This document shows positions 224 to 14,542 of a stretch of 37,769 bases of DNA, one piece after another. Every line of letters starts with the position of its first letter. The first letter of the stretch is position 1. The stretch lies in IMG/VR virus record IMGVR_UViG_3300045988_180316; one strand, written 5' to 3'. Made by a program: the position numbers and the translations under genes. A model generated the notes under the pieces. It worked only from the letters and a program-made list of their open reading frames with translations, was not told the origin of the DNA and did no database searches. This stretch comes from a virus (Duplodnaviria; Heunggongvirae; Uroviricota; Caudoviricetes).

Positions 224-299
224 CGCGGTGTGGAGCAGTTGGTAGCTCGCCAGGCTCATAACCTGGAGGTCGCATGTTCGAGTCCTGCCGCCGCAACCA
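224..299 (+). tRNA. tRNA-Met (anticodon CAT), initiator-like
   Basis: 76 nt from CGCGGTG to CAACCA with encoded CCA. Anticodon loop CTCATAA has CAT at 257-259. T-loop GTTCGAGTC. The acceptor stem has a C1:A72 mismatch, as in E. coli tRNA-fMet, to which the whole sequence is closely similar. Confidence 0.85.
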
Positions 300-415: not shown

Positions 416-1579
416 ATGACTGCAAAAGAAATTGATTTTTTGAGCTCGCGTGAAATAGTAGGTTTCACGCTGCCTGTGTTGCATACCAAGGGCGGTTACT
501 GGTATGTTGACTTTACTGCCTTTGACCCTGTCTCGGGTCGGATGAAGCGCAAGAAGTACATGCTTAATAGGTACAAGACAGACCACAAGAAGCGTATGAT
601 GGGTACCTTGCTTATCCACAATATCACGGCAAAATTGACCGCTGGCTGGAATCCTTGGGTGAATGCCGACAAGTCGAGACAATTCACTGAAATACCAATT
701 ATCTTTAGTCGTTATCGTGATTATATTAAGTCGATGACCGACAAAAAGTCGATGAAGGAAAAGACCTCTATCGACTACCTCAGCCGCCTCAAGACTCTGG
801 AGTCTTTTATCTCTGAGTGCAAGAGTGTCAAATATGCCTATCAGATTGACCGTGCCTTTGCCATCGACTTCTTAGACCACCTGATGTATGACCGTGATGT
901 GAGTGCTACCACAAGAAACAACTATCGCTCTTGGCTTGTGTCCTTCGGCACTTGGCTTATGGATAGAAAATATATCAGCGAGAACCCTGCCATCGACATC
1001 AGAAACATCGCTCAGAAGGAGAAGTTCAGAGACCCTTTGACCGAGGGCGCACTTAAGAAGCTGAAGACTTATCTCTATGATAACAACAGACATTTTCTCT
1101 TGGCTTGCCTCTTTGAATATTATACCTTTATCCGACCGAATGAGTTGACGCAGATAAGAATCAAAGATGTGTCGATTGCTGACCAGACGGTCTTTATCAG
1201 TTCTGCCATCAGCAAGAACCGTAAGGACGGACTTGTGGCATTGAACGATGAAATCTTGAAGCTCATGATAGAGCTGAAGATATTTGAGCATCCGGGACAT
1301 TGTTTTATCTTTGGCAAGGGTTTGAAGCCCGGAGAGGAAAGAGCACCTTATAATCAGCTGAGAGTGGAGTGGGGTAAGATGAGAGATGCGATTGGGTTTC
1401 CGAAGGAGTATCAGTTTTATAGCCTGAAGGACACTGGCATCAGGGATTTGGCGAACGCACAGGGTATCGTGGTCGCCAAGGATCAGGCACGCCACTCTGA
1501 TATATCTGTGACGAATCGATATATCAAGAACCAGATGAAAGTGAACGAGGAGACCAAGCACTTCAAAGGTGGGCTTTAG
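416..1579 (+). CDS. Tyrosine recombinase / phage integrase
   Basis: 387 aa. C-terminal catalytic region contains the conserved Arg (FIRPNELTQIRIKDV), the His/Arg box (QARHSDISV) and the Tyr nucleophile (TNRYI). Sits next to the tRNA 3' end. Confidence 0.9.
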   Translation: MTAKEIDFLSSREIVGFTLPVLHTKGGYWYVDFTAFDPVSGRMKRKKYMLNRYKTDHKKRMMGTLLIHNITAKLTAGWNPWVNADKSRQFTEIPIIFSRYRDYIKSMTDKKSMKEKTSIDYLSRLKTLESFISECKSVKYAYQIDRAFAIDFLDHLMYDRDVSATTRNNYRSWLVSFGTWLMDRKYISENPAIDIRNIAQKEKFRDPLTEGALKKLKTYLYDNNRHFLLACLFEYYTFIRPNELTQIRIKDVSIADQTVFISSAISKNRKDGLVALNDEILKLMIELKIFEHPGHCFIFGKGLKPGEERAPYNQLRVEWGKMRDAIGFPKEYQFYSLKDTGIRDLANAQGIVVAKDQARHSDISVTNRYIKNQMKVNEETKHFKGGL

Positions 1580-1636: not shown

Positions 1637-3535
1637 TTACGACATCATATAAAAATATCCTGTATAGATAGGCTCAATCTGGTCATCCTTGACCTCCATC
1701 TCTATTTTTTCGCATACGAATTTTTTGTTGTGTATGATGTATGTGTGAGATGGGTCAGGGATGGTATCAGATTGAAATTTTACCTGAAGGCAGTTTTTGT
1801 TGTCTATCTTGAGACCGCTGTCGTGGAGCTCACCCAAACAGGTTCCTGCTTGCCAAGCCTTGTTTAGGGATAGGGAAGCCATCAGAACGGTTGGAAACGT
1901 GCCAATATTGCCAGGATCGAGCAACTCCATCCTATACATGGAATTGATGCGGCTGTCAGTCATGAACTGCTGCCATCTGGACTTCTCCCCTACCCATGAG
2001 ACGTTGCCATTGAGTGGGTGTTCGTATTTTTGAACTTTGCCAGGCACTATGAAAAACACATTCATGCACTCCTGGTCATCCTCGGAATCATCCAAGGTGG
2101 ACTCATCATCGATGGCATCCTGTATGGAGACGTAGTTGTAGCCATCCTCGTCTGTGTCGCTCTCTTTGGCTTCGGCTTCTTTGTCGTTTGGCATAGACAG
2201 GAGGCAGCGCCATTCGCTGTGTTTACCCTCAAAAAGAAAAGACCTAAAGCTAACATTTTCCACGACCTGTGCTGCTGGGGATATGTTGAGGTCTGTGTAA
2301 TCATCGGAGGAGTTATCCCTTATCAGTGGCGACCAGACACCAGCCAACTGCCAGCTCTTGTTGCCGTCGGTATCCTCGACATATATATAATAATCGCTGC
2401 CCAGATGACGGATGATGGTGGTGCGCTTCTTCTTCTCGGACCATCCACTGGTAGTGGCAGGAAACTGAAAGTTGGTACCAACGGCTGTCTCGAACGAATC
2501 GACTATATCGAAATTATCAAAAACTTTTTTGGGAATGACTTCGTAATCACCTCTGTTGGCTGAGTCGCCTAAGTTGTACTGCAGGTTGGCTGTCGATGAG
2601 GTTGAGAACGAACCATCGGCATCGTAGTCGGTGGTGTACTCGTCGAGTGTCTCTATCTCTACGGAGTCGGCGGATGATAGCTCTGAGGACTTGATGACCT
2701 GACAAGTCTTTTTGATGTCGTCGAAGTATATGGTGGCGTTGAAGAGCTTGCGGAACTCCTCGATGAAGGTGTAGCTAGTCCAATGAGGAAGGGCACGGCG
2801 AAGCTCTAGGGTCTTGAAGGCGGAGGCGATGTAGAGCAAGTTCCATGGAGAAACATCGAGGTCGTTGCGTGTGAGGGTGTAGCCCTCGTAGGCGATGACT
2901 CGCTTGAAGATGTACATCAGGTTGGGCTGCACGGCGACGTTGCTGATGTATGGATCTTTGCTGCCTATGAAATTGCCCGTGCGGTCAACGCCCACGAAAT
3001 TGGCTATCATGTCGTTGGTCTCGTCTCTGACTGGCATGAAGCACCACTTGCCCTGCTCGCCCAGAAACTTGCTCTGGTCGGCGACGAGCCTATAGACGGA
3101 TTGAACCTTGGGGATGTTTTTCCAGCCCTGTGAAAAACCTTTATCTACCGTATAGCCTGGTGCGGATGCCTTGCCGAAGTCTATCTCGTCGATGTAGTGC
3201 TTGGTCATCTTGTCGTTGAACTTGATGCGAGACTTGCCGCCCACTATCTGAAGCTTTATCTCAGAGTCGGTGACGCTGATGATGGTACCCACGCCAGAGA
3301 GTACCAGGCGACCGCTCACGTAAAGCTTGCAATCGTTGTAGGTCTGGGTGGATTTGGAGACATCGAAGCGGCTCACGTTGTGGAAAACTCGGCGGTTGGG
3401 CATTATTGCCATGGGGAAATTGATGTCGTAGGAGTATTCGCCATCGTCGGTGACGTATTGGTTGGCGTATGTGAGCTTGATGGATTGGCTGGCAGCCGGA
3501 TAGGCTGCCATGCCATTGATGATGCATGTTATCAT
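1637..3535 (-). CDS. Tail-associated protein immediately after the tape-measure gene (distal tail or tip protein?)
   Basis: 632 aa ORF whose start is 34 nt after the tape-measure stop. Assignment is by position only; no recognisable motif. An alternative start exists at 3511. Confidence 0.4.
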   Translation of the reverse strand: MITCIINGMAAYPAASQSIKLTYANQYVTDDGEYSYDINFPMAIMPNRRVFHNVSRFDVSKSTQTYNDCKLYVSGRLVLSGVGTIISVTDSEIKLQIVGGKSRIKFNDKMTKHYIDEIDFGKASAPGYTVDKGFSQGWKNIPKVQSVYRLVADQSKFLGEQGKWCFMPVRDETNDMIANFVGVDRTGNFIGSKDPYISNVAVQPNLMYIFKRVIAYEGYTLTRNDLDVSPWNLLYIASAFKTLELRRALPHWTSYTFIEEFRKLFNATIYFDDIKKTCQVIKSSELSSADSVEIETLDEYTTDYDADGSFSTSSTANLQYNLGDSANRGDYEVIPKKVFDNFDIVDSFETAVGTNFQFPATTSGWSEKKKRTTIIRHLGSDYYIYVEDTDGNKSWQLAGVWSPLIRDNSSDDYTDLNISPAAQVVENVSFRSFLFEGKHSEWRCLLSMPNDKEAEAKESDTDEDGYNYVSIQDAIDDESTLDDSEDDQECMNVFFIVPGKVQKYEHPLNGNVSWVGEKSRWQQFMTDSRINSMYRMELLDPGNIGTFPTVLMASLSLNKAWQAGTCLGELHDSGLKIDNKNCLQVKFQSDTIPDPSHTYIIHNKKFVCEKIEMEVKDDQIEPIYTGYFYMMS

Positions 3536-3568: not shown

Positions 3569-6500
3569 TTATTTGTTTGACTTCATTTTTTGATATTGGC
3601 TCCATTGGCGGTCGAAGCCATCGGGGCCGGTGATGACCACGTATGACTTGATGCCAGCGTTGAGCTGCTCGTTGAGTCTGTCGATGGTGGTATGCACGCT
3701 ATCGAGGGATGCGCCCATCTGCTCGGTGTCGCCACCTGATACGTTGACCACTGGGGCGACCACGGCTGCGCTGCCTGTGCCCATGGCACGGCTCACGTCT
3801 TGGGCGGTGAGCGAGGCGACCGTGTTGTTGCGCTGCGCCATATCGATGAGCTGCAGGGCAGGGAGGAGCTGAGGATTGTTGACGGCGTTGTGGTTGGCGA
3901 CGAACTCGCCAGCGTGAACCACGCCAGCCTCTTTCTTGTAATTGCCAGGACCAGTGAAACCACCCTCGTAATAGCCAGCCGCCTCTGCCTGGTGCTGCTT
4001 TTTGATTGTTGCTATCTGGAGCATGCCCGCTGCGGTGGCGAGACCTGCGGCGATAGGACCAAGGATGTGACCCACCACTGGGATGGCTGCGGCTGATGAG
4101 TAGGCGTTGATGGCAGCCATGGCGGTTGAAGCTATGGCTTGTGCGATCTCTATCTTCATCGCCTTTTTGTTGGCCTTGCTCTTGGCTGCAGCCACCTCTT
4201 TGTCTCGCTTCGCCTCGAGACGCTTTTTCTTGGCTGAGTTGTTGCCAGCGGCAGAAATCTGCTTATCGTAGTTTTTCTCGATCTTGGCGACCTCTAGGTC
4301 TGAGCATGCCTGGGAGTAGGCGGAGGCAGCGCCCATCATCGTGTTGATGCTGCTGAAGGCAGCGCCAGCGATGGAGGCTATCTCTTGATAGGTCTCTTTG
4401 TTCATCTGCTTTTTGGCATCCTGGTATTGCTGCTCGCTGATTTTATCCTCGTCTCGAAGCTTCTGAAGGTTTTGGTTGACCATCTTTTGCTGTTGGATGG
4501 CTGCGATGGCACCACCTGCGATTGTGGCGAGGTTGTCGCTGCCCATGGCATTACTGTTGTCGCCATTGCCCTTGGTCATCTTTTTGGCGGTGTCGAGGGC
4601 GGTGTTGGCATCCTCTTTGCGCTGCTCATCGGCGGTAGGCTTGTATGAGGCGTATTTGTTGGCGATGCCCATCTTTGTGCGCTGGTATTCCTCCTCTCTG
4701 ATGAGACCTGCCTTGTAGATGGCTTCGAGCCCCTGCAGCTCTAGTTGCATCTGCTCTTCGTTGCCGAGCTTGCCGTATTCTTGGCGCAGCTGAAGGAGTT
4801 GTTCGTCGTGTTGCTTCTGAAGGTCGTATTTGCGTTGCTGTTGGGTCAGCTCTCGCTCTTTCTCGATCTGGGCGTACTCGTCAGATGAGGAGAGGTAGAG
4901 GGCTTGTTTTTTGTTGAGATAGTCCTGGTATGAGAGAAAGAGAGCCTCGTTGACGGCATCCTCATTGTGATAGAGGTTGGAGTCTTTGTTGTAGTAATCG
5001 GCATTGAGCTTCATTTCTTTTTTCTGTCGCTCGGTCTCCAGGGCTTCGAGGTCGGCGGTCTGCTTTTTCTCGTAGTCGGCAGCGATGTTTTCTTTCTCTG
5101 CATTGAGTCGCTTGTACTCTTCGCTCTCAGCCTCGCCATACTTTTTGAGAATGTCGAGGCGATCCTGAAGCCCCTGCTCTTTGATATTCTTCATCTTCTC
5201 GTTGTATTCGGCGAGTCGAATCTGACCTGTAGCGTAGAGGGTCTTGGCATCGAGCTCTTCGGCTTGGTTGGCTTTCTTAGCATCGTCTAGCTCTTTTTTC
5301 ATGTCGGCCTTGCGCTTTGCCTCTGCCTTGCGAGCGGCAGCCTCACGTTTCTTTTTCTCCTTTTCGGCAGCTTTGCGCTCTTTCTCGGTCATGGTATGGC
5401 CAGAGGAAGGGGTGGTGTGTGTCTCTGTAGTTGCGCTATTGTTTAGTAAATTCTTCTTTACAGTCTTGTTGTACTGTTTCTGCAAATTTACGTTTTTCTC
5501 TAATTGCTGATTATAGAAATTCTCTTCAGCATTGACTTGCTTTTGCAGGCTTAGGTTTGCCTGTAGTCTTTGCGTATGAACTTGCTTTTGCTTCTCGTTA
5601 CTCTTCAGTGCCTCGTTTTGTTCGATGAGCTGACCTGTCCATCCATCAGCCACGGCATTGCTCTCATATTGCTTAGGATGAGCCTTGCGCTCAGCATCGA
5701 CAGCCTTCAGCGAATATCGTATGCGGCTTTCTTTTTGTTTGAGTTCCAGTTTCTTTTTATTGATTTCCACCTTGCGCTCATAGATGGCTTCTGCCATGGC
5801 AGCATTTTCTAGCTCCTTGATGTAGTTTTGGATGGCAATCTGGTTGTCGTTATACAACTTGCCCTCTTTGGAGATAGAGGCGTGATATTCTGGGACGAGC
5901 TTTATCATATTTGCGATAGCTTGCTTTCGCTCGTCAACGGTATAGGCATTGGAGTGGATAACCTTGTTGAGCATATCGACCTTGTTGCGCTCATCGAGGG
6001 TAGCATCAGACACCTTTTTGGCGAGGCTGGCTTGAGCCTCTGCCACTGCTCTGTTGTTTTTAGCCTCTTGCGTGTTGTTGCGCATCGCCTCGTTGTAAGA
6101 TGTTATGGCTTTGTATGCCCCATAGGCAGCCACGCCCACCACGGTGATGACTGTGGCGAGGGCAGCCCATGGATTGGTGAGACTTGCTAGGCGTGCTGCC
6201 CTCATCACCACGATGTAGCCCTGTATGCCTTTTGTGAGATAAGCCCATGTGGCTTGCAGTGCCACTAAGGCAGCACGCAAGAGTGTAGATGTAGCGGTAT
6301 AAGCTTTATCGACAGCTGAAGCGTATTGTACGGCGGCTGTTTTAATCTTAATGGCGATGGTCTCCTTGTACCAGAGAGCAGTACAAACAGCGATGGCTGT
6401 TGACAGCACGGCTATTTGTTTTGCATAGGTGACGGTGAAGGTGATGAGCGTGGACATGACCTTTATGGTCAGACTGAATGATGTGATGCCATATTTCATG

Positions 6501-7915
6501 GCAGGGATGAGTTTTTCTCCGAGTTCGATGGTGAGGTCTTGGAATCGCTTCTTGGCTTTGTCTAGTTCTGCCTGTACCGTTGTATTCTGGGTATTGAACT
6601 CATTGATGACACTGGTACCGTCGGCATACGACTTGGTGGCGATGTCTTGCGCCTCTTTCACTTGGTCGAGGTGTGTAGCCACGGCGGAGAGAACGCCCAC
6701 GGCACGGGTGCCGTTAAGCTGCATCTCCTCAAACATCGGTGCCATCTCGGCGAAACCACCCTTTGACTTCATGGCTTGCATGAACTTCATCAAGCCCTCG
6801 TTGGCGTTGGTCTTCATCAGGTTGGAGAACTCCTTGACCTGCATGCCCGCTATCTTGGCGAACTTGGCTGGCTCTTGGTACATCTTGGTGATGAGCTGTG
6901 AGAAGACGGTGGCGGAAGTCGCCTCCTCTTGCATATTTTGGTCGAGGGCAGAGGCGAGACCCATGAGCTGTGCCTGGGTCATGCCGGCCTGGATGCCGAC
7001 ACCTGAGAGGTCGGCAGTGAAATCGACGATGTAGCCAGCGTTGGCTGATGAGCTTTGTGCCAGCTCATTGACGGCGGAACCTGTGGCGAGCATCGCACCA
7101 CGAAGGCCTTTGGTCTTATCCTCACCAAACATCTGGGCGAGCTTGCCGATTTTATCGACCGCCCCCTTGCCGAGGTCATCGCCGAGGGCGACATTGATTT
7201 TGTCGGCACCATCAACGAACTCCTCGATCATCTCTTTGCTGGTGATGCCGAGGCGACCGGCAGAGCCAGCCAGCTCGTTGAGCTGCTCACGAGCCGTGCG
7301 GGTATCCATGCGCTTGAAGTCCTCGTTCATCTGATGAACTTGCTCATCGGTCTGACCTGTATATTTGCGCACGTCAGCCATCGACTCCTCCATGTCGGCG
7401 TAGGCTTGAGCTGCAGCTCTCAAAGTAAGAGTGAGTGTGGTGAGACTGCCCAGTATCTGGGTGAAGGCACCCCAGTTTTTGTTAAGACCATCCCACATTC
7501 TAGAGAACAAACTTCTGGAAGCTTTACCTTCGTCGTTGATGTGCTGCATCTCTGCTCGCACTTGCTTTAATTGCTTTTGCAGTTTTTTCCATTCGTCTGA
7601 GTTGCGCTTGATGGCACCGCTTTTCAACTCTCTGTTGAGAGCCTTGGCGACTAGTTGCAGCTCCTTGTATGATGCAGAAGAAAGATTGTTGAGAACTTGG
7701 TTAACCTTCTCTTGGCTAGTCATGTATGCTTTTGTCTCAGCCTTTAATCTCTTTATCTGTCGTTCGAGGGCTGTTGTTGACTCGCCCTTTGCATAAGCCT
7801 CGTCTCTGGCTTTTTGCACTTCTTTCAGCTTGTTTTGCAATTCGTTGAGTTTATCCTTAGCCTCTTTGGTGTCAAGAATAACTCTGCTAACATGGGTATC
7901 TGTATTTGTTGCCAT
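3569..7915 (-). CDS. Tail tape-measure protein
   Basis: 1448 aa. Long coiled-coil, Lys/Glu/Gln-rich repeats; a central hydrophobic segment (residues ~480-600) likely transmembrane; N-terminal core region of the kind seen in TP901-type tape-measure proteins (AGSAGRLGITSKEMIEEFVDGADKINVALGDD). Confidence 0.85.
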   Translation of the reverse strand: MATNTDTHVSRVILDTKEAKDKLNELQNKLKEVQKARDEAYAKGESTTALERQIKRLKAETKAYMTSQEKVNQVLNNLSSASYKELQLVAKALNRELKSGAIKRNSDEWKKLQKQLKQVRAEMQHINDEGKASRSLFSRMWDGLNKNWGAFTQILGSLTTLTLTLRAAAQAYADMEESMADVRKYTGQTDEQVHQMNEDFKRMDTRTAREQLNELAGSAGRLGITSKEMIEEFVDGADKINVALGDDLGKGAVDKIGKLAQMFGEDKTKGLRGAMLATGSAVNELAQSSSANAGYIVDFTADLSGVGIQAGMTQAQLMGLASALDQNMQEEATSATVFSQLITKMYQEPAKFAKIAGMQVKEFSNLMKTNANEGLMKFMQAMKSKGGFAEMAPMFEEMQLNGTRAVGVLSAVATHLDQVKEAQDIATKSYADGTSVINEFNTQNTTVQAELDKAKKRFQDLTIELGEKLIPAMKYGITSFSLTIKVMSTLITFTVTYAKQIAVLSTAIAVCTALWYKETIAIKIKTAAVQYASAVDKAYTATSTLLRAALVALQATWAYLTKGIQGYIVVMRAARLASLTNPWAALATVITVVGVAAYGAYKAITSYNEAMRNNTQEAKNNRAVAEAQASLAKKVSDATLDERNKVDMLNKVIHSNAYTVDERKQAIANMIKLVPEYHASISKEGKLYNDNQIAIQNYIKELENAAMAEAIYERKVEINKKKLELKQKESRIRYSLKAVDAERKAHPKQYESNAVADGWTGQLIEQNEALKSNEKQKQVHTQRLQANLSLQKQVNAEENFYNQQLEKNVNLQKQYNKTVKKNLLNNSATTETHTTPSSGHTMTEKERKAAEKEKKKREAAARKAEAKRKADMKKELDDAKKANQAEELDAKTLYATGQIRLAEYNEKMKNIKEQGLQDRLDILKKYGEAESEEYKRLNAEKENIAADYEKKQTADLEALETERQKKEMKLNADYYNKDSNLYHNEDAVNEALFLSYQDYLNKKQALYLSSSDEYAQIEKERELTQQQRKYDLQKQHDEQLLQLRQEYGKLGNEEQMQLELQGLEAIYKAGLIREEEYQRTKMGIANKYASYKPTADEQRKEDANTALDTAKKMTKGNGDNSNAMGSDNLATIAGGAIAAIQQQKMVNQNLQKLRDEDKISEQQYQDAKKQMNKETYQEIASIAGAAFSSINTMMGAASAYSQACSDLEVAKIEKNYDKQISAAGNNSAKKKRLEAKRDKEVAAAKSKANKKAMKIEIAQAIASTAMAAINAYSSAAAIPVVGHILGPIAAGLATAAGMLQIATIKKQHQAEAAGYYEGGFTGPGNYKKEAGVVHAGEFVANHNAVNNPQLLPALQLIDMAQRNNTVASLTAQDVSRAMGTGSAAVVAPVVNVSGGDTEQMGASLDSVHTTIDRLNEQLNAGIKSYVVITGPDGFDRQWSQYQKMKSNK

Positions 7916-10512: not shown

Positions 10513-10920
10513 TTAGACCTCTCTTGCGAGAATCTCCTTGGCTATCTCCTTGGCCTCTTTGCGCCACGACTGATAAGCCTCGAACTCTGCCTCGTGAGTC
10601 TCGTCACCATCGCCACGGTTGGCAAGAATAGCCTCGACCTGATTTTGGCTGTATCGGGTGCGAACCAAACCTGCGGTGAAATCGTCGTAGGTGGCTGCGG
10701 TCGCCTGAATCTTGGTCGAGCCATCAGGCTCTGTGCCCTCATAGCTGTAAGCAGTGACACCCTCGGAGTTTTCATCTTCTGACTGCTCTGAGGTATCGGA
10801 AGAGCCTGTAGCGGCCTCTGGGTGATAGTTTTCAACTTTCTGCTCACCAGTGTAGAGCAGATAATGGTTATCGTCATACTTGACGAAGCTCTTGCGAGCG
10901 AGATAATACTTCTTGTTCAT
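10513..10920 (-). CDS. Acidic hypothetical protein just downstream of the DGR reverse transcriptase
   Basis: 135 aa, Glu/Asp/Ser-rich, 6 nt after the RT stop. It does not look like a basic Avd-type accessory protein. Confidence 0.45.
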   Translation of the reverse strand: MNKKYYLARKSFVKYDDNHYLLYTGEQKVENYHPEAATGSSDTSEQSEDENSEGVTAYSYEGTEPDGSTKIQATAATYDDFTAGLVRTRYSQNQVEAILANRGDGDETHEAEFEAYQSWRKEAKEIAKEILAREV

Positions 10921-10926
10921 AATTGA

Positions 10927-12570
10927 TCACGTGAATTTATAGAACTTCTTTTTGAACTTATTGTGAAGCTCTGCGACCACGGTGGAGAAGGGTAGCTCGT
11001 CACGACAGAAGTCGTTGAGGGCTTGGTCTATCAAGATCTTGGAGCCTGTATAGAGGTAGTGCTCCTGAGGCTGCCATACCTCGGTGCCGTCTGGCTCCAG
11101 GTGGTCGATGATGCGATAGCGAAGGGAGAGGCGCTTCTTGGGTACCTCTTTGGTGACCATGTGGGTGGAGCCGTCCGGGGCGGTCTCCTCTTGCTGGATG
11201 GTCTCCTTCTCTATCACCGAGTCATCGACCTTGTAGTCTATCACTTGGACGAGGAACTTGTTCTCGTCCTGACCCTCACGGCAGATGATGTCCTCGATGG
11301 ACTGCTGCTGTGATTTCTCCATACCGTCAAAAGGCACGCGCGCACGGCGAGCCTTGACGAGTTTACCGAATCTTTCCATACCGATTTTCTTATATAAGTG
11401 TTTTGAGTTTGCGTGGATGCCCAGTCCTAGGCGAGAGGCTGCCTTGATCTGTATCTGACGGTCTGTGAAGCCCGCCTTGCGTAAGTTGGCAATCTGTTTG
11501 CAGAGGTCGTGCTTGAACCGCTTGCGCAGCAGGGCGTGGTCAGCGTAGATGATCTGACCGCAGAAGTCGATGCCATCGCAGGTGCGGTGGATACCCCAAG
11601 ACTTATTGATGGATAGGTGCCAGTCACGGGCGAGGTGCATCACGGCAAGCTCTGCCATCAGCCTGAGGAACACCTTATCCTCGTGGAGGATGTAGATGTT
11701 GTCCATGAAGCGGTAATAATGGCGAAGACCTTGGCGGCAGAAGCGCTCGAACCTATCGTTGAGCGACTTCACCCCCCCACATAGCAGCTGAGCTTGCTGC
11801 TGAGTGCGACAGGTAACGAGCATGTCGCTCACGTAGCGAGCCTGCCAGTAACGGAACTTGTCGGTGTCTTGGAGAATGTCGAAGCATCGGAGTGCCAGGT
11901 AATCGAAGCGGGCGAGGAAGAGCTGACCCAAGAGTTGGGCGAGCTTGACGCCGAGCACGATGCCTGGATTGAAGCTATCGACCACCTCGTCGATGAAGGC
12001 GAGGAGCTTGCGGTCTTTGATCTTGCGGCGATATTCACTTTTGAGAAGAGCGTGGTCTATGCTCTGAAAATAATGGTGAATATCCATGGGCAAGCAGTAG
12101 AAGGTATCTTGCTGTGGCGAGTTGAAGATGTCTCGCTTGACAAGATTATAGAAATAATGGGTGCCCTTGCCCTTGGAACCAGCCGGACTGTGGCTGTAGA
12201 GTGTCTTGCGAAGGTTATCCTCTACAGGTTGCAGGGCAGCGTGCTGGATGACGTGGTCGATAACGGGCAGCTTGTTGACTTGGCGATGTTTTGGATAGTC
12301 GATATCTTTGGCGACATAGGCTGAGGTATGCCAAGTTTGTTGGGTGTAAGCATCGAGCATGCGTCCGATGTTATGGTCTAGGTTTGCCTCGAATTTTTGG
12401 ACCGCACGGCGAGACATCTTTTGTCGGGCGTAGTCATAGAATGCCCGACGAAAGTTGTCTAGTGTCTCGACCTGTGGCGATATGTTGCCAAACCTTTTCA
12501 TAAGCGGTGTAATGTCTGTGTTGAACGGTGTATAAACTGTGTATAGTCTGAATCGTCTGCTTTTGTACAC
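10927..12570 (-). CDS. DGR-type reverse transcriptase with non-canonical catalytic motif
   Basis: RT motifs in the translation: SPAGSKGKGTHY (compare bRT RPDKGTH), FYCLPMDIHHYFQSIDHALL (motif 3), GIVLGVKLAQLLGQLF (motif 4, the DGR-typical G-x-x-x-S/A-Q) and RFMDN-IYILHEDKVF where Y-x-D-D is expected. Start may be 12570 or 12501. Lies downstream of the template repeat. Confidence 0.8.
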   Translation of the reverse strand: MYKSRRFRLYTVYTPFNTDITPLMKRFGNISPQVETLDNFRRAFYDYARQKMSRRAVQKFEANLDHNIGRMLDAYTQQTWHTSAYVAKDIDYPKHRQVNKLPVIDHVIQHAALQPVEDNLRKTLYSHSPAGSKGKGTHYFYNLVKRDIFNSPQQDTFYCLPMDIHHYFQSIDHALLKSEYRRKIKDRKLLAFIDEVVDSFNPGIVLGVKLAQLLGQLFLARFDYLALRCFDILQDTDKFRYWQARYVSDMLVTCRTQQQAQLLCGGVKSLNDRFERFCRQGLRHYYRFMDNIYILHEDKVFLRLMAELAVMHLARDWHLSINKSWGIHRTCDGIDFCGQIIYADHALLRKRFKHDLCKQIANLRKAGFTDRQIQIKAASRLGLGIHANSKHLYKKIGMERFGKLVKARRARVPFDGMEKSQQQSIEDIICREGQDENKFLVQVIDYKVDDSVIEKETIQQEETAPDGSTHMVTKEVPKKRLSLRYRIIDHLEPDGTEVWQPQEHYLYTGSKILIDQALNDFCRDELPFSTVVAELHNKFKKKFYKFT

Positions 12571-12709
12571 TTGATAACCTTCGACCGGATGACCGTGTTG
12601 TCATCATCTACCAGCTGTCTTATTGATGTGTATGTATCGCCATGGGGCGAGGATTGACCCTGTAATCTCGAAGTGGGAGCAAACGACCCACGAAGAGATA
12701 TGTCTGTAA

Positions 12710-12831
12710 GTTGAGGGCGGCGCCGTAGTTCACATTGGCATTCGAGACAGCATTGTTCACGTTGAGCGTCGAAAGACCGCATTGACCACCATTGTTAGCG
12801 TTAGCACCACGAAGGCAGACACGAAAACCGG
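12710..12831 (-). repeat. DGR template repeat (TR)
   Basis: ~122 bp, near-identical to the target-gene 3' end at 13121-13242. In gene sense it is full of AAC/AAT (Asn) codons. By eye there are 15 mismatches to the variable repeat, 14 of them at TR adenines (sense strand). Confidence 0.8.
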
Positions 12832-12863
12832 CACCTAGGGTCACACCCTGATATCATAACCGC

Positions 12864-12871
12864 CGCAAAGG
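12864..12871 (-). promoter_or_regulatory. -7 promoter element TACCTTTG (minus sense) just upstream of the template repeat
   Basis: Plus-strand caaaggta at 12864-12871, about 33 nt upstream of the TR start in minus sense. Could drive the TR-RT transcript. Confidence 0.35.
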
Positions 12872-13023
12872 TAATAAAAATAATCGGTATGGAAGCATGT
12901 CAAAGAGCTTTTTTGATGTTTTTATTGATATTTTTTTTGTCGCCGACCGCCACAGGCGGTAACTTAAGGCGAGCTACGCTCGCTGGGTGCTTCGGCTTCG
13001 CCGAGGGTGCTCAGGTCTCTTTT

Positions 13024-13061
13024 GCACACCCAGTAAACCGATGCACACCCAGCAAACTGAT
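13024..13061. repeat. Tandem 19-bp direct repeat just downstream of the DGR target gene
   Basis: gcacacccagtaaaccgat (13024-13042) then gcacacccagcaaactgat (13043-13061), 2 mismatches. Lies between the variable and template repeats together with palindromes at 12946-12960 and 12969-12983. Confidence 0.5.
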
Positions 13062-13069
13062 GTAGTCTT

Positions 13070-14542
13070 TTAGGCCGCCTCGTAATACACGGGTTCCACT
13101 GACCACTCGGATGCTGCTTCGCAGAGGGCGGCGCCGCAGTACACATAGGCAAGCGAGACAGCATCGCTCACGTCGCGCGTCGAAAGACCGCATTGACCAC
13201 CAACGTAAGCGCTAGCACCACGAAGGCAGACACGAAAACCGGATGTAGCGCCGCTATTATTCCAGAAATAGCTAGTCCAATAGGTTGACTCGGATGCGCC
13301 CGTGGCGGTCGGGAAGTTCTCCAGATGCTCCATCGAGAGCGTCTTGATAAAGCCTTCGCCCTTGGTCGGCGAGGTGCTGTAAGCCACCATGCCATCGGCG
13401 GAACCTATCGTCCACGTGCCGTAGATGGACGGTGCCACGAGATGGGTCACGGAAGTGTCTTCGTTGCATCGCACCTGCTCGTCATCCATGTGTCGCCACA
13501 ACGAGCCGAAGCCATTTTTGTAGCCGAAGAAGGATGGTATCTTGGCGGTATAGACCACGGTGCCATCGTCTTTTTTGACCTCGTAGCTTGCCTCGCCACA
13601 AGCGTCGCCCAGCTCGATGCCGGCAGACATCGGCACGACAGGGCGATAGCCGTTGTAACCACCCCAATCAGGCATCTGTGTCACGCCAGCTCCGAGACCA
13701 CCCTGGTAGAGACCGTTGGCATCTTTTTGGCTGTTGACGGCATCCTGGTCGTAGTGGGTGCCGAAGATGACCCCGAAGAGCACGGCGATGGCAGAGGTGT
13801 GGCGCATGGTGGTGCAGAGCCAGCCTGTGCCGTTTTTGCGGGCAGCGGCACGCCAGTATTCGGTAGTCTGGTTGGTGGCAGCCTTGCCCAGCATGGTGCG
13901 GTTGGTGTTATCTAACGTTGAGTCGTTGTTGCCGCCTCGGTAGTCTGTGCCCTCGTTGATGTAACTCACCAGCTTGCCTGTGCTGCGCTCTAGCGTGGCG
14001 AAGCCAGCGGCGGAGATGCTGCCAACAGGTATCTTGTAGTTGTACTCGCCTGGTATCGGCGTAGGGCTGACCATCTCGTAATGGAGTCTGCCCACGGTCT
14101 TGATGACCATGTACCACTCCTTGCCCCAGCCCCACTGGTAGTGCCCCTCTGAGCCGTCGAGCTTGGCTGTCTCGCCGGTGGCATACTTGTAATGGTCTTT
14201 GGAGTCGAGCTTGCGACGGGAGTGGTCATTCTTGACTAGGTAGCAGCCCAGACCCAGCTCCGCTGGTAGGGTCTGCAGTAACTCCAGCGAGCCCACATAA
14301 GTGGCGGCCTTAGGGGTTGCATTGTCGAGGTTCCACACTCGACCACACCAAGGATGCTGTCCCATCTGGACGGCGCTTTTGAGCGACATCTGCTCAGACC
14401 TGCCAGACTTTTTGTCGAAGACCTCGACAATCTTGTCTGTGGCGCTCATGTCTGACTGTGGGAGGTCGTCAACCTGTTGACCTCCATCGAAAGCGGCTAT
14501 GATAGCCTTGAGCTTACTCTCTTCTTCTGATGTTAATGCCAT
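13070..14542 (-). CDS. DGR target protein, putative receptor-binding / tail fibre protein with C-terminal variable region
   Basis: ~490 aa. The C-terminal ...GFRVCLRGASAYVGGQCGLSTRDVSDAVSLAYVYCGAAL... is the variable counterpart of the template repeat. Start moved to MALTSEEE (14542) to remove overlap with the upstream gene. Last gene of the tail-fibre operon. Confidence 0.8.
   Translation of the reverse strand: MALTSEEESKLKAIIAAFDGGQQVDDLPQSDMSATDKIVEVFDKKSGRSEQMSLKSAVQMGQHPWCGRVWNLDNATPKAATYVGSLELLQTLPAELGLGCYLVKNDHSRRKLDSKDHYKYATGETAKLDGSEGHYQWGWGKEWYMVIKTVGRLHYEMVSPTPIPGEYNYKIPVGSISAAGFATLERSTGKLVSYINEGTDYRGGNNDSTLDNTNRTMLGKAATNQTTEYWRAAARKNGTGWLCTTMRHTSAIAVLFGVIFGTHYDQDAVNSQKDANGLYQGGLGAGVTQMPDWGGYNGYRPVVPMSAGIELGDACGEASYEVKKDDGTVVYTAKIPSFFGYKNGFGSLWRHMDDEQVRCNEDTSVTHLVAPSIYGTWTIGSADGMVAYSTSPTKGEGFIKTLSMEHLENFPTATGASESTYWTSYFWNNSGATSGFRVCLRGASAYVGGQCGLSTRDVSDAVSLAYVYCGAALCEAASEWSVEPVYYEAA
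13121..13242 (-). repeat. DGR variable repeat (VR) inside the target gene
   Basis: Aligns to the template repeat with an offset of 411 bp. 10 of the 12 differing codons are Asn in the TR. A GC-rich CGGCGCCGCCCTC sits at the 3' end of both repeats (IMH-like). Confidence 0.8.

Follow-up and report, generated by a model that had tools for sequence, protein, structure and literature searches.

A diversity-generating retroelement with an atypical reverse transcriptase targets a tail protein in a temperate gut Bacteroidetes phage

The stretch of phage DNA analysed here (the window; 37,769 nucleotides) very probably carries, on the minus strand at positions 10513-14542, the complete and active diversity-generating retroelement (DGR) of a temperate gut Bacteroidetes phage, with activity here judged from close relatives. 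It shows adenine-specific divergence between a template repeat (TR) and a variable repeat (VR), hypervariation at adenine-templated codons, a DGR-type reverse transcriptase (RT), a C-type-lectin target, and the RNA RT-17 in the spacer position (Table 1). A preliminary description had read the region as a DGR diversifying a putative receptor-binding protein, and the adenine-enriched mismatches, the RT, and the lectin-type target support that reading. DGRs are a well-known kind of element, but the RT branch found here is undescribed within it. What the DGR rewrites is the tip of a tail protein in a gut phage that has no close GenBank relative. The element plausibly sits after tail-fibre-like genes; genes neighbouring the target have weak tail-fibre matches, and a lysis cassette lies downstream of the DGR region.

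Table 1. Features of the DGR region, in window coordinates
Feature	Position	Strand	Remarks
Small acidic ORF, 135 aa	10513-10920	minus	directly after RT; candidate cassette component
DGR RT, 524 aa	10927-12501	minus	divergent clade
RT C-terminal extra domain, aa 388-524 (~140 aa)	10930-11340	minus	beta-rich; ends KKFYKFT; conserved family-wide
RT motif C, F-M-D-N in place of Y-x-D-D, aa 265-268	11698-11709	minus	aligned to bRT YMDD
G7 homopolymer, RT codons 242-244	11772-11778	minus	in frame here; length varies in relatives
Structured RNA RT-17 (Rfam RF03020), between TR and RT	12553-12654	minus	covariance model
TR	12713-12831	minus	22 adenines, nine AAY codons
TACCTTTG, Bacteroidetes-type -7 promoter motif, putative promoter of TR-RT transcript	12866-12873	minus	42 nt upstream of TR
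Conserved GC-rich hairpin ACCGCC-TGT-GGCGGT, terminator-like	12946-12960	minus	compensatory changes in L004, L006
Conserved hairpin GCGAGC-GTA-GCTCGC, after GAGCACCC motif	12969-12983	minus	compensatory changes
Tandem 19-nt direct repeat, just past target stop codon	13023-13060		kept in L108 and L096 lineages
Target gene, tail protein, 490 aa	13070-14542	minus	C-terminal C-type-lectin/FGE-type domain bears VR
CGGCGCCGCCCTC, GC-rich VR 3' end common to TR; candidate IMH-like element	13124-13136	minus	read from sequence; TR/VR homology ends here
VR, target codons 434-473	13124-13242	minus	repeat alignment and natural variants

Template and Variable Repeats

Repeat search and ungapped alignment identify a single direct repeat, 119 nt long and 89% identical at an offset of 411 nt, and no additional VRs were found in the window. 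The two copies differ at 13 positions, 12 of which are adenine in the template on the gene-sense (minus) strand (six A>G, five A>T, one A>C; the thirteenth mismatch is T>G). Given 22 adenines in the 119-nt TR, 12 or more of the 13 mismatches would fall on adenine with a hypergeometric probability of 8e-10, so the adenine enrichment claimed in the preliminary description holds. Its repeat of 122 nt with 15 mismatches, 14 at adenine, is reproduced when the next codon (AAC in the TR, TGC in the VR) is included, but the true repeat is 119 nt long. This codon encodes an invariant Cys in 13 natural variants, which marks it as a fixed flank difference rather than a product of adenine mutagenesis. Its count of 10 Asn codons among 12 changed codons is likewise correct as made and becomes 9 of 11 inside the true repeat, and its peptide strings for template and gene are accurate. 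The non-adenine mismatch, CTC>CGC (L456R), is found only in the window, Leu being present in each of the 14 other cluster members sampled.

The GC-rich 13-mer at the VR 3' end is a candidate IMH-like element by analogy with the GC-rich element of the BPP-1 IMH (PMC3240598). Whereas a GC-rich GRNA-loop hairpin abuts the VR in BPP-1, no hairpin of this type directly abuts it in the window: the adjoining stem is a weak one of 4 bp (CTGC-GAA-GCAG), and conserved hairpins lie 140-180 nt downstream.

Target Gene and Its Natural Variation

The target's PHROG match is 5302 ("tail protein"; 1e-57), and Pfam and NCBIfam give no usable match for it. Its C-terminus has a C-type-lectin fold, in favour of the earlier proposal, and the VR lies inside this scaffold, as expected of a DGR. 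Its best structural match is TaqVP, and it contains no other recognisable domains.

Among 13 near-identical public variants, the hypervariable residues are 444, 446, 447, 450, 455, 457, 459, 460, 464, 466, and 468, which correspond to 11 of 13 adenine-containing codons and none of the 477 other codons (P=9e-21). The 90% identity cluster holds 545 distinct target sequences, and the VRs of the 14 genuine members compared are all different; a fifteenth, P0248, is a VR/TR assembly chimera and was set aside. These public near-identical copies stand in for read mapping; their variation falls almost exclusively at adenine-templated VR codons, and at this population level ongoing diversification is confined to such positions.

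The pattern extends to more distant relatives. Four loci with RTs 36-65% identical share the architecture and have purely adenine-directed mismatches (8/8, 3/3, 8/8, and 16/16). In 53 further TR/VR loci, about 96-100% of mismatches are at adenine, with the exception of three L108 OFF loci (24/36), and within the four largest lineages among them the VR is distinct in each locus while the TRs are common.

Non-Coding Elements

The promoter motif TACCTTTG is present just upstream of the template, as previously described, and presumably drives the TR-RT transcript. Its position is conserved: TAnnTTTG precedes the TR by 41-50 nt in 52 of 53 related loci, compared with an occurrence in 3.2% of random 80-nt windows.

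RT-17 matches its model over the full length (positions 1-95) at 59.4 bits, above the gathering score of 40.4, and occupies the same position in L001 and L004-L007. It is the positional counterpart of the BPP-1 DGR spacer RNA; BPP-1-type phage carries RF03022 (Phage_DGR) at this position. The source paper of RT-17 (Weinberg et al. 2017, PMC5737381) ties RT-10 alone to a DGR and speculates that further RT motifs might have a DGR association.

For the GCGAGC hairpin, L004 (GCGTGC/GCACGC) and L006 (GGCAC/GTGCC) carry compensatory changes, as does L011 (GCGAAC/GTTCGC) on visual inspection; the hairpin covariation comes from few lineages plus such inspection. A U-run comes after the ACCGCC hairpin in those L110 and L104 lineage members that were aligned. 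The global fold that RNAalifold gave for the entire VR-TR spacer was unconvincing.

Reverse Transcriptase

The RT gene follows the template, as the preliminary description stated. Its start is the ATG at 12501 rather than the GTG at 12570, because the N-terminal MKRxG is conserved across the family and a GTG start would overlap the RT-17 RNA. The RT family profile matches bRT in the PDB at E=4.9e-36 and the best group II RT at 3.4e-10, and the best Foldseek match is 8ub7_A (TM 0.87); the RT thus groups with DGR RTs and not with the RTs found in group II introns, retrons, or Abi systems. The nearest phage RTs by tblastn include those of crAss-like and BPP-1-type phages reported to carry DGRs.

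The RT belongs to an atypical, essentially unannotated clade. Neither Pfam nor NCBIfam yields a usable match, and RVT_1 fails to recognise it, so DGR finders based on RVT_1 would miss the whole clade. At the DGR RT signatures, [I/L]GxxxSQ of motif 4 and the catalytic YxDD, it aligns unambiguously in position with bRT, with two canonical residues differing. In place of IGxxxSQ the clade has LGxKLxQ (LGVKLAQ in the window); at the bRT Ser position, 56 of 118 members have Ser and 58 have Ala, and the Gln is invariant. In place of YMDD it has F-x-D-N, the Asn being shared by 117 of 118 members, which range down to 35% identity, and a helical insertion of ~55 aa separates motifs B and C. No description of YxDN, FxDN, or another Asn variant of YMDD/YxDD was found in the open-access subset of the literature, which is weak evidence of novelty. 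Replacement of the second catalytic Asp by Asn is expected to impair catalysis.

That expectation, together with the failure of RVT_1 and the frameshift that splits the RT in many relatives, could be taken to mean that the DGR is a fossil with an inactive RT and that the TR/VR differences are relics. Such decay is very improbable. Conservation of the Asn over so wide a range of identity points to a selected state, and with adenine mutagenesis throughout the clade it counters the concern over catalysis. Both RT halves have pN/pS of 0.07-0.16, all 14 genuine near-identical targets differ in the VR, and, within the set of 53 TR/VR loci, every VR is distinct in each of the four largest lineages over common TRs. 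It is scarcely credible that the RT is of another class (group II intron, retron, Abi, or DRT) beside repeats that arose by ordinary duplication and divergence: all of these RTs score far below bRT, and an Rfam scan found no intron or retron RNA. The matches pointing that way are a sub-threshold NCBIfam group II RT match at 4e-9 and weak PADLOC matches to DRTs, such as UG17 at 1e-11.

C-Terminal Domain and Small Acidic ORF

The C-terminal domain of the RT has only 65 representatives among 1.84 billion proteins, occurs in one unannotated record among 50,697 in phages, and has no sequence relative in the PDB even at E<=10. A likeness of ~40 residues to giant adhesin-like repeats was rejected since it looks like a generic strand-helix motif. 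Apparent standalone matches of 115-150 aa begin at the internal invariant Met375 of the RT and are most simply ORF fragments.

The small acidic ORF is homologous in every related locus examined, across differing phage backbones, and has 705 homologues. It has no Pfam, PHROG, or PADLOC match, and NCBIfam gave nothing usable on the small ORFs. None of the 39 window ORFs matches an Avd-family Pfam model at E<=0.01, at Pfam-level sensitivity. An accessory gene (for Avd, HRDC, or MSL) is not obligatory: Wu et al. (2018, PMC5758913) recognised none in 29% of their curated DGRs, whose Avd-less "Architecture A" consists of target, TR, and RT. We hypothesise that at least one of the FxDN motif, the helical insertion, the C-terminal domain, and the acidic ORF takes the role of Avd.

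Poly-G Tract

In L022, the closest relative, the tract is G8 and the RT frame is broken, with flanks 100% identical to those of the window (G7, ON). Among relatives, 54 of 57 broken RTs are restored by changing tract length alone. In the sister lineage L110, all 37 contigs are out of frame (G7 in 32 and G9 in five), and none of them, over a nucleotide divergence of about 4%, has the in-frame G8. Both halves of the L110 RT nevertheless have pN/pS of 0.09-0.12, the VRs of all 25 TR/VR-bearing loci are distinct, and 253 of 263 mismatches are at adenine. Purifying selection on both halves and diversifying VRs in an out-of-frame lineage suggest recoding or phase variation, and the tract probably modulates RT production.

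Variation in tract length was rejected as special in itself after a homopolymer control, in which other runs of >=7 nt in the same contigs varied at similar rates (9-14%); the argument instead draws on out-of-frame being the modal state, on selection, and on activity. These rates, and the intact frame of the window RT, also fit sequencing or assembly noise or neutral slippage, with the split RTs of relatives simply broken. We consider this explanation unlikely, though it carries real weight. The other variable runs are non-coding, save one A7 in a long ORF with a single variant, and G8-G10 tracts were assembled in other lineages, so a systematic cap at 7 does not exist. The repair of broken RTs by tract length alone, the modal state of L110, its constrained RT halves, and its diversifying VRs all speak against this explanation.

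Proposed Mechanism

By analogy with BPP-1, the element would act through an RNA intermediate, spacer-RNA priming, and a homing step. A transcript starting just downstream of TACCTTTG would carry the TR, the RT-17 RNA, and the RT mRNA. The RT would copy the TR into cDNA faithfully except opposite adenines, and the cDNA would supplant the VR at the tail-protein gene's 3' end. As a result, 12 codons on the ligand-binding face of the C-type lectin would be randomised (roughly 3e12 possible peptides), which may alter receptor binding.

It is conceivable, though on the doubtful side, that these gut Bacteroidetes phages carry an Avd-independent DGR subtype, in which an RT with FxDN is catalytic and adenine-mutagenic, the C-terminal domain and/or the acidic ORF replaces Avd together with RT-17, and the poly-G tract sets RT dosage. 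Full-length RT in the obligatorily out-of-frame sister lineage would then have to arise by -1 ribosomal frameshifting at GGG GGG UAA or by transcriptional slippage.

Comparison with Known Systems

The BPP-1 DGR (mtd-avd-TR-brt) contains avd, unlike the element in the window, whose RT clade adds the insertion between motifs B and C and the C-terminal domain, and whose target is closer to TaqVP than to Mtd. The cassette resembles Architecture A in being Avd-less, and its RT resembles the C-terminally extended RTs of the same survey (PMC5758913), in which about 20% of DGR RTs continue downstream of the thumb by up to ~150 aa, with no function assigned. FxDN, RT-17 RNA, a small ORF after the RT, and an RT homopolymer are not described in the accessible text of that survey.

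TaqVP-like targets in Bacteroides prophages constitute the "domain group 2" of Macadangdang et al. (bioRxiv 10.1101/2024.11.15.621889), which shares with the window a gut Bacteroidetes prophage context, TaqVP (PDB 5VF4) as best structural match with no further recognisable domains, and a presumed tail-fibre receptor-binding role. The accessible text of that preprint describes no RT peculiarities for this prophage group, and the five elements it details encode Avd-like proteins and target pilins, unlike the window.

The Quimbyvirus DGR (Benler et al. 2021, PMC8008677) is also found in a temperate gut Bacteroides phage. There, a gene that comes after the tail fibres bears the first VR at its C-terminus, and the RT is next. 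Although this RT has an interrupted reading frame, adenine substitutions are still seen, and Benler et al. put forward programmed frameshifting. Quimbyvirus belongs to a different phage family (about 75 kb, myovirus-like, two VRs), and its RT spans three frames, is shifted twice, and has no described slippery site, whereas the window RT is intact and the RTs of its relatives break at one defined poly-G tract whose length varies. Hankyphage identity for the Mu-like relative L004 was rejected, as L004 has no GenBank phage match.

Significance

The DGR itself is ordinary; what makes it useful is that an uncharacterised temperate gut phage supplies a clean case of verifiable activity. The RT clade is of greater weight. 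Adenine-specific infidelity with Asn for the second catalytic Asp bears on how DGR RTs misincorporate selectively, and an Avd-less RT that has a fused domain and is faithfully accompanied by a small partner ORF opens a way to DGR tools that are simpler and portable. The coding poly-G tract is out of frame throughout a lineage that is active and under selection, which suggests throttling or switching of the hypermutator by phages, and the defined site makes the programmed-frameshift idea from Quimbyvirus testable. If true, poly-G dosage control would be a gag-pol-like throttle on a hypermutator.

Adenine-Directed Diversification of the Target

The window very probably carries a functional diversity-generating retroelement (DGR) that diversifies a tail receptor-binding protein. 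This reading, proposed in the preliminary description, is supported by adenine-directed mismatches between the template repeat (TR) and the variable repeat (VR), by a DGR-type reverse transcriptase (RT), and by hypervariation at A-containing codons in natural variants of the target.

A repeat search recovers a single long direct repeat in the window, with an offset of 411 nt between TR and VR, at the place originally claimed; no second VR was found anywhere in the window. Read in the sense of the gene (minus strand), the two copies differ at 13 positions of the 119-nt core. At 12 of these the TR has A (A>G 6, A>T 5, A>C 1); the remaining mismatch is T>G. Given 22 A in the TR, at least 12 of 13 mismatches at A has P = 8e-10, which bears out the enrichment at template adenines that had been read from a hand alignment. 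The figures then given (122 nt, 15 mismatches, 14 at A) are reproduced when one further codon is added, but they overstate the diversified core. That codon, AAC in the TR and TGC in the VR, encodes Cys without exception in the natural variants examined and is therefore flank, outside the diversified sequence. The T>G change produces L456R, seen in the window alone among the target-cluster members compared.

The 90%-identity cluster of the target contains 545 distinct sequences. Fifteen members were compared, and the 14 genuine ones each have a different VR. The formal variability test used 13 sequences, after removal of a chimera and one indel-bearing member: at least four different residues occur at 11 of 13 codons that contain A in the TR versus none of the 477 others (Fisher P = 9e-21). 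Substitutions match the codon neighbourhoods expected at 450 (CNN) and 469 (TNC). Four loci with RTs 65, 49, 39, and 36% identical to the window RT share the same layout, and their TR/VR mismatches fall at A in 8/8, 3/3, 8/8, and 16/16 cases, respectively.

The chimera, cluster protein P0248 (502 aa), was rejected as a genuine variant, as its VR is identical to the TR and continues into TR-downstream sequence, the mark of a VR/TR assembly join. MT835875.1 likewise stops at the TR. Assemblies suffer breaks or mis-joins at DGR repeats, which may distort DGR surveys.

Coordinates of the retroelement and of neighboring phage features
Feature	Position	Strand	Remark
tRNA-Met (CAT)	224-299	+	Window edge, directly upstream of integrase
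Tyrosine integrase	416-1579	+	
632-aa protein	1637-3535	-	
PhageMin_Tail protein	3569-7915	-	1448 aa, tape-measure-like
Acidic ORF	10513-10920	-	135 aa, directly after RT
RT	10927-12501	-	524 aa, counted from conserved MKRxG start
RT motif C	11698-11709		RT aa 265-268
G7 run	11772-11778	-	RT codons 242-244, within clade-specific insertion
RT-17 RNA (RF03020)	12553-12654	-	
TR	12713-12831	-	
TR-proximal hairpin	12946-12960	-	Downstream of target stop codon; compensatory changes between lineages
Target-proximal hairpin	12969-12983	-	Downstream of target stop codon; compensatory changes between lineages
Tandem 19-nt direct repeat	13023-13060		TGCACACCCAGYAAACYGA x2, just past target stop codon
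Target tail protein	13070-14542	-	490 aa
VR	13124-13242	-	3' end of target gene

Reverse Transcriptase

The RT has no Pfam match at E<=0.1, and NCBIfam returns group II RT alone, below threshold; PHROG 1423 'reverse transcriptase' is matched at 5e-54. Among 50,697 phage records, tblastn relatives are 25-29% identical, confined to residues 1-375, and include RTs of phages reported with DGRs (crAss-like, BPP-1-type). A 65-sequence family profile retrieves bRT, the RT of Bordetella phage BPP-1, from the PDB at E = 4.9e-36, the best non-DGR match being a group II intron RT at 3.4e-10. Foldseek with the AlphaFold model (pLDDT 89.4) likewise ranks bRT first (8ub7_A, TM 0.87), with group II intron RTs at ~0.6-0.76. 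Because bRT outscores group II RTs in both searches and PADLOC makes no strong assignment to retron, Abi, or DRT systems, the enzyme is placed with DGR RTs, in agreement with the preliminary description.

The clade numbers over 100 full-length homologues of 510-550 aa, drawn from gut, Bacteroidaceae, Rikenellaceae, and Prevotella assemblies; almost all are unannotated and lack a precomputed Pfam RT match. Alignment of this clade against bRT and one crAss RT defines several departures from reference DGR RTs. The Asp of motif A and the first Asp of motif C never vary. In 117 of 118 members Asn takes the place of the second catalytic Asp of motif C, a variant for which no description was found in the open-access literature. 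The histidines of DIHHYF might compensate for this Asn in metal binding.

Differences between reference DGR RTs and the RT clade
Element	Reference	RT clade
Motif C	YxDD	F-x-D-N
After motif A Asp (RT aa 140-145)	DFSKFF (bRT)	DIHHYF, His-His invariant or near-invariant
Motif 4	IGxxxSQ	LGxKLxQ
Motif B-to-C interval	No insertion	~55-aa helical insertion
C-terminus	Ends after thumb	Added ~140-aa beta-rich domain behind disordered linker

The C-terminal domain is rare, carried by just 65 representatives in a set of 1.84 billion proteins, and full-length matches are always C-terminal in an RT-sized protein. It has no sequence relative in the PDB and, among GenBank phages, occurs in one unannotated scaffold only. 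Invariant Met375 (window 11375-11380 region) precedes the linker (aa 378-386) and the domain, and several database proteins of 115-150 aa begin exactly at this residue. These are probably ORF fragments; internal initiation at Met375 may also release the free domain. C-terminal RT extensions and cassettes lacking Avd, the accessory protein of BPP-1-type DGRs, are catalogued yet unexplained DGR variation (PMC5758913).

Poly-G Tract in the RT Gene

The window RT is intact at its G-tract. In several relatives the RT is split close to the tract; the breaks map exactly onto it, and a change in tract length alone restores a frame of 523-538 aa. A degenerate pattern scan yielded 108 metagenome contigs, 80 of them fetched as loci, to which 10 viral contigs were added (relatives in the observation: L001, L011-L016, L022-L111). 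Among 76 loci with full flanks, the RT is in frame in 19, broken and repairable by tract length alone in 54, and affected by other lesions in 3. Tract length ranges from G6 to G10.

G-tract length by lineage
Lineage	Contigs	In-frame length	Observed lengths
L108	16	G7	G7 x13, G8 x2, G9 x1
L096 (incl. MT835875)	6	G7	G6 x2, G7 x3, G8 x1
Window lineage	2	G7	Window G7; L022 G8, flanks 100% identical
L104	10	G8	G6 to G10, G8 once only
L110	37 (about 4% divergent)	G8	G7 x32, G9 x5, G8 never

Lineage L110 is thus out of frame at the tract in 37/37 contigs. Its pN/pS is 0.12 in the upstream RT half and 0.09 in the downstream half (pS 0.15-0.18), equal to that of the in-frame L108 lineage. Among the 25 L110 loci that carry both repeats, no two share a VR, but there are just 11 distinct TRs, and 253 of 263 mismatches lie at A. 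Purifying selection on both halves, together with continuing VR diversification, suggests that these out-of-frame RTs still function. The L110 G7 state reads GUG GGG GGG UAA, where a -1 slip gives V-K-S-L-N, homologous to the in-frame product of the window.

Other homopolymers of at least 7 nt in the same contigs, non-coding except for an A7 run inside a long ORF, of which one variant was seen, vary at 9-14%, so individual +/-1 differences in the G-tract are unremarkable. What needs explanation is the modal out-of-frame state, the selection, and the ongoing diversification taken together, rather than length variation. On sequence evidence, this combination suggests that the RT is phase-variable, or recoded through slippage at the ribosome or during transcription; both readings are ranked above noise. 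Benler et al. proposed programmed frameshifts for the DGR RT of Quimbyvirus (B. dorei CP011531 prophage), which spans three frames (PMC8008677); the present tract adds a defined slippery site, length polymorphism, and evidence of selection in a different phage group.

Accessory ORF and Non-Coding Elements

A search for Avd-family proteins in the window found none. Homologues of the acidic ORF are 28-72% identical with 16 invariant positions, within a family of 705 members, none annotated. One occupies the post-RT position in every related locus examined, on Mu-like and integrase-type backbones alike, and this constancy makes the ORF a candidate cassette component, possibly a new DGR accessory factor. 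It may instead be a tail-associated protein.

RT-17 RNA lies at the same place in relatives with RT identity of at least 49% and scores below threshold in the distant members L008 and L009; a BPP-1-type phage carries RF03022 'Phage_DGR' in that position. RT-17 is therefore most plausibly interpreted as the spacer/priming RNA of this DGR clade. The paper defining the RT motifs tied RT-10 alone to a DGR and offered a DGR link for the others as speculation (PMC5737381). In the crAss-like phage cr60_1 (L003 3422-3502), the sequence just upstream of the DGR RT matches RT-17 (37.2 bits) and RT-18 (34.8 bits) below threshold, a hint that the two motifs form a set of related spacer RNAs in the DGRs of Bacteroidetes phages.

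A putative promoter motif, TACCTTTG, precedes the TR by 42 nt; of 53 related loci, 52 have TAnnTTTG at 41-50 nt upstream of their TR, versus 3.2% background. The TR-proximal hairpin is followed by a U-run in aligned L110 and L104 members and looks like an operon terminator. Unlike BPP-1, with its GC-rich GRNA hairpin (PMC3240598), the window has no such counterpart abutting the VR, just a 4-bp CTGC-GAA-GCAG stem. The tandem repeat is kept in two sister lineages and may be a protein-binding site.

Phage Context

The window has the appearance of a complete temperate phage, and the adjacency of tRNA-Met and integrase fits an attachment site within or next to the tRNA gene and a near-complete prophage or phage genome. 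No close relative was found among GenBank phages. The window encodes a ClpP-type prohead protease, a holin-like gene, an amidase, and a DUF6549 gene, and a 1159-aa fibre-like protein is followed by 280-aa and 254-aa proteins with weak tail-fibre matches and then by the DGR. The PhageMin_Tail and 632-aa genes follow the lysis cassette next to the integrase, remote from other tail genes, an odd position for a tape measure; their order is conserved in relatives L008, L009, and L011-L019. Further ORFs may represent moron, defence, or counter-defence cargo, coding for a HicA toxin, a RadC-like JAB protein, and a protein with a phosphoribosyltransferase domain.

Distinguishing Features of the Clade

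The DGR itself is of a known kind, and Bacteroides prophages with TaqVP-like targets are a described group (bioRxiv 10.1101/2024.11.15.621889). What sets the RT clade apart is FxDN, the insertion, the fused domain, the lack of Avd, the RT-17 RNA, the partner ORF, and the coding G-tract. These combined features merit experimental follow-up.
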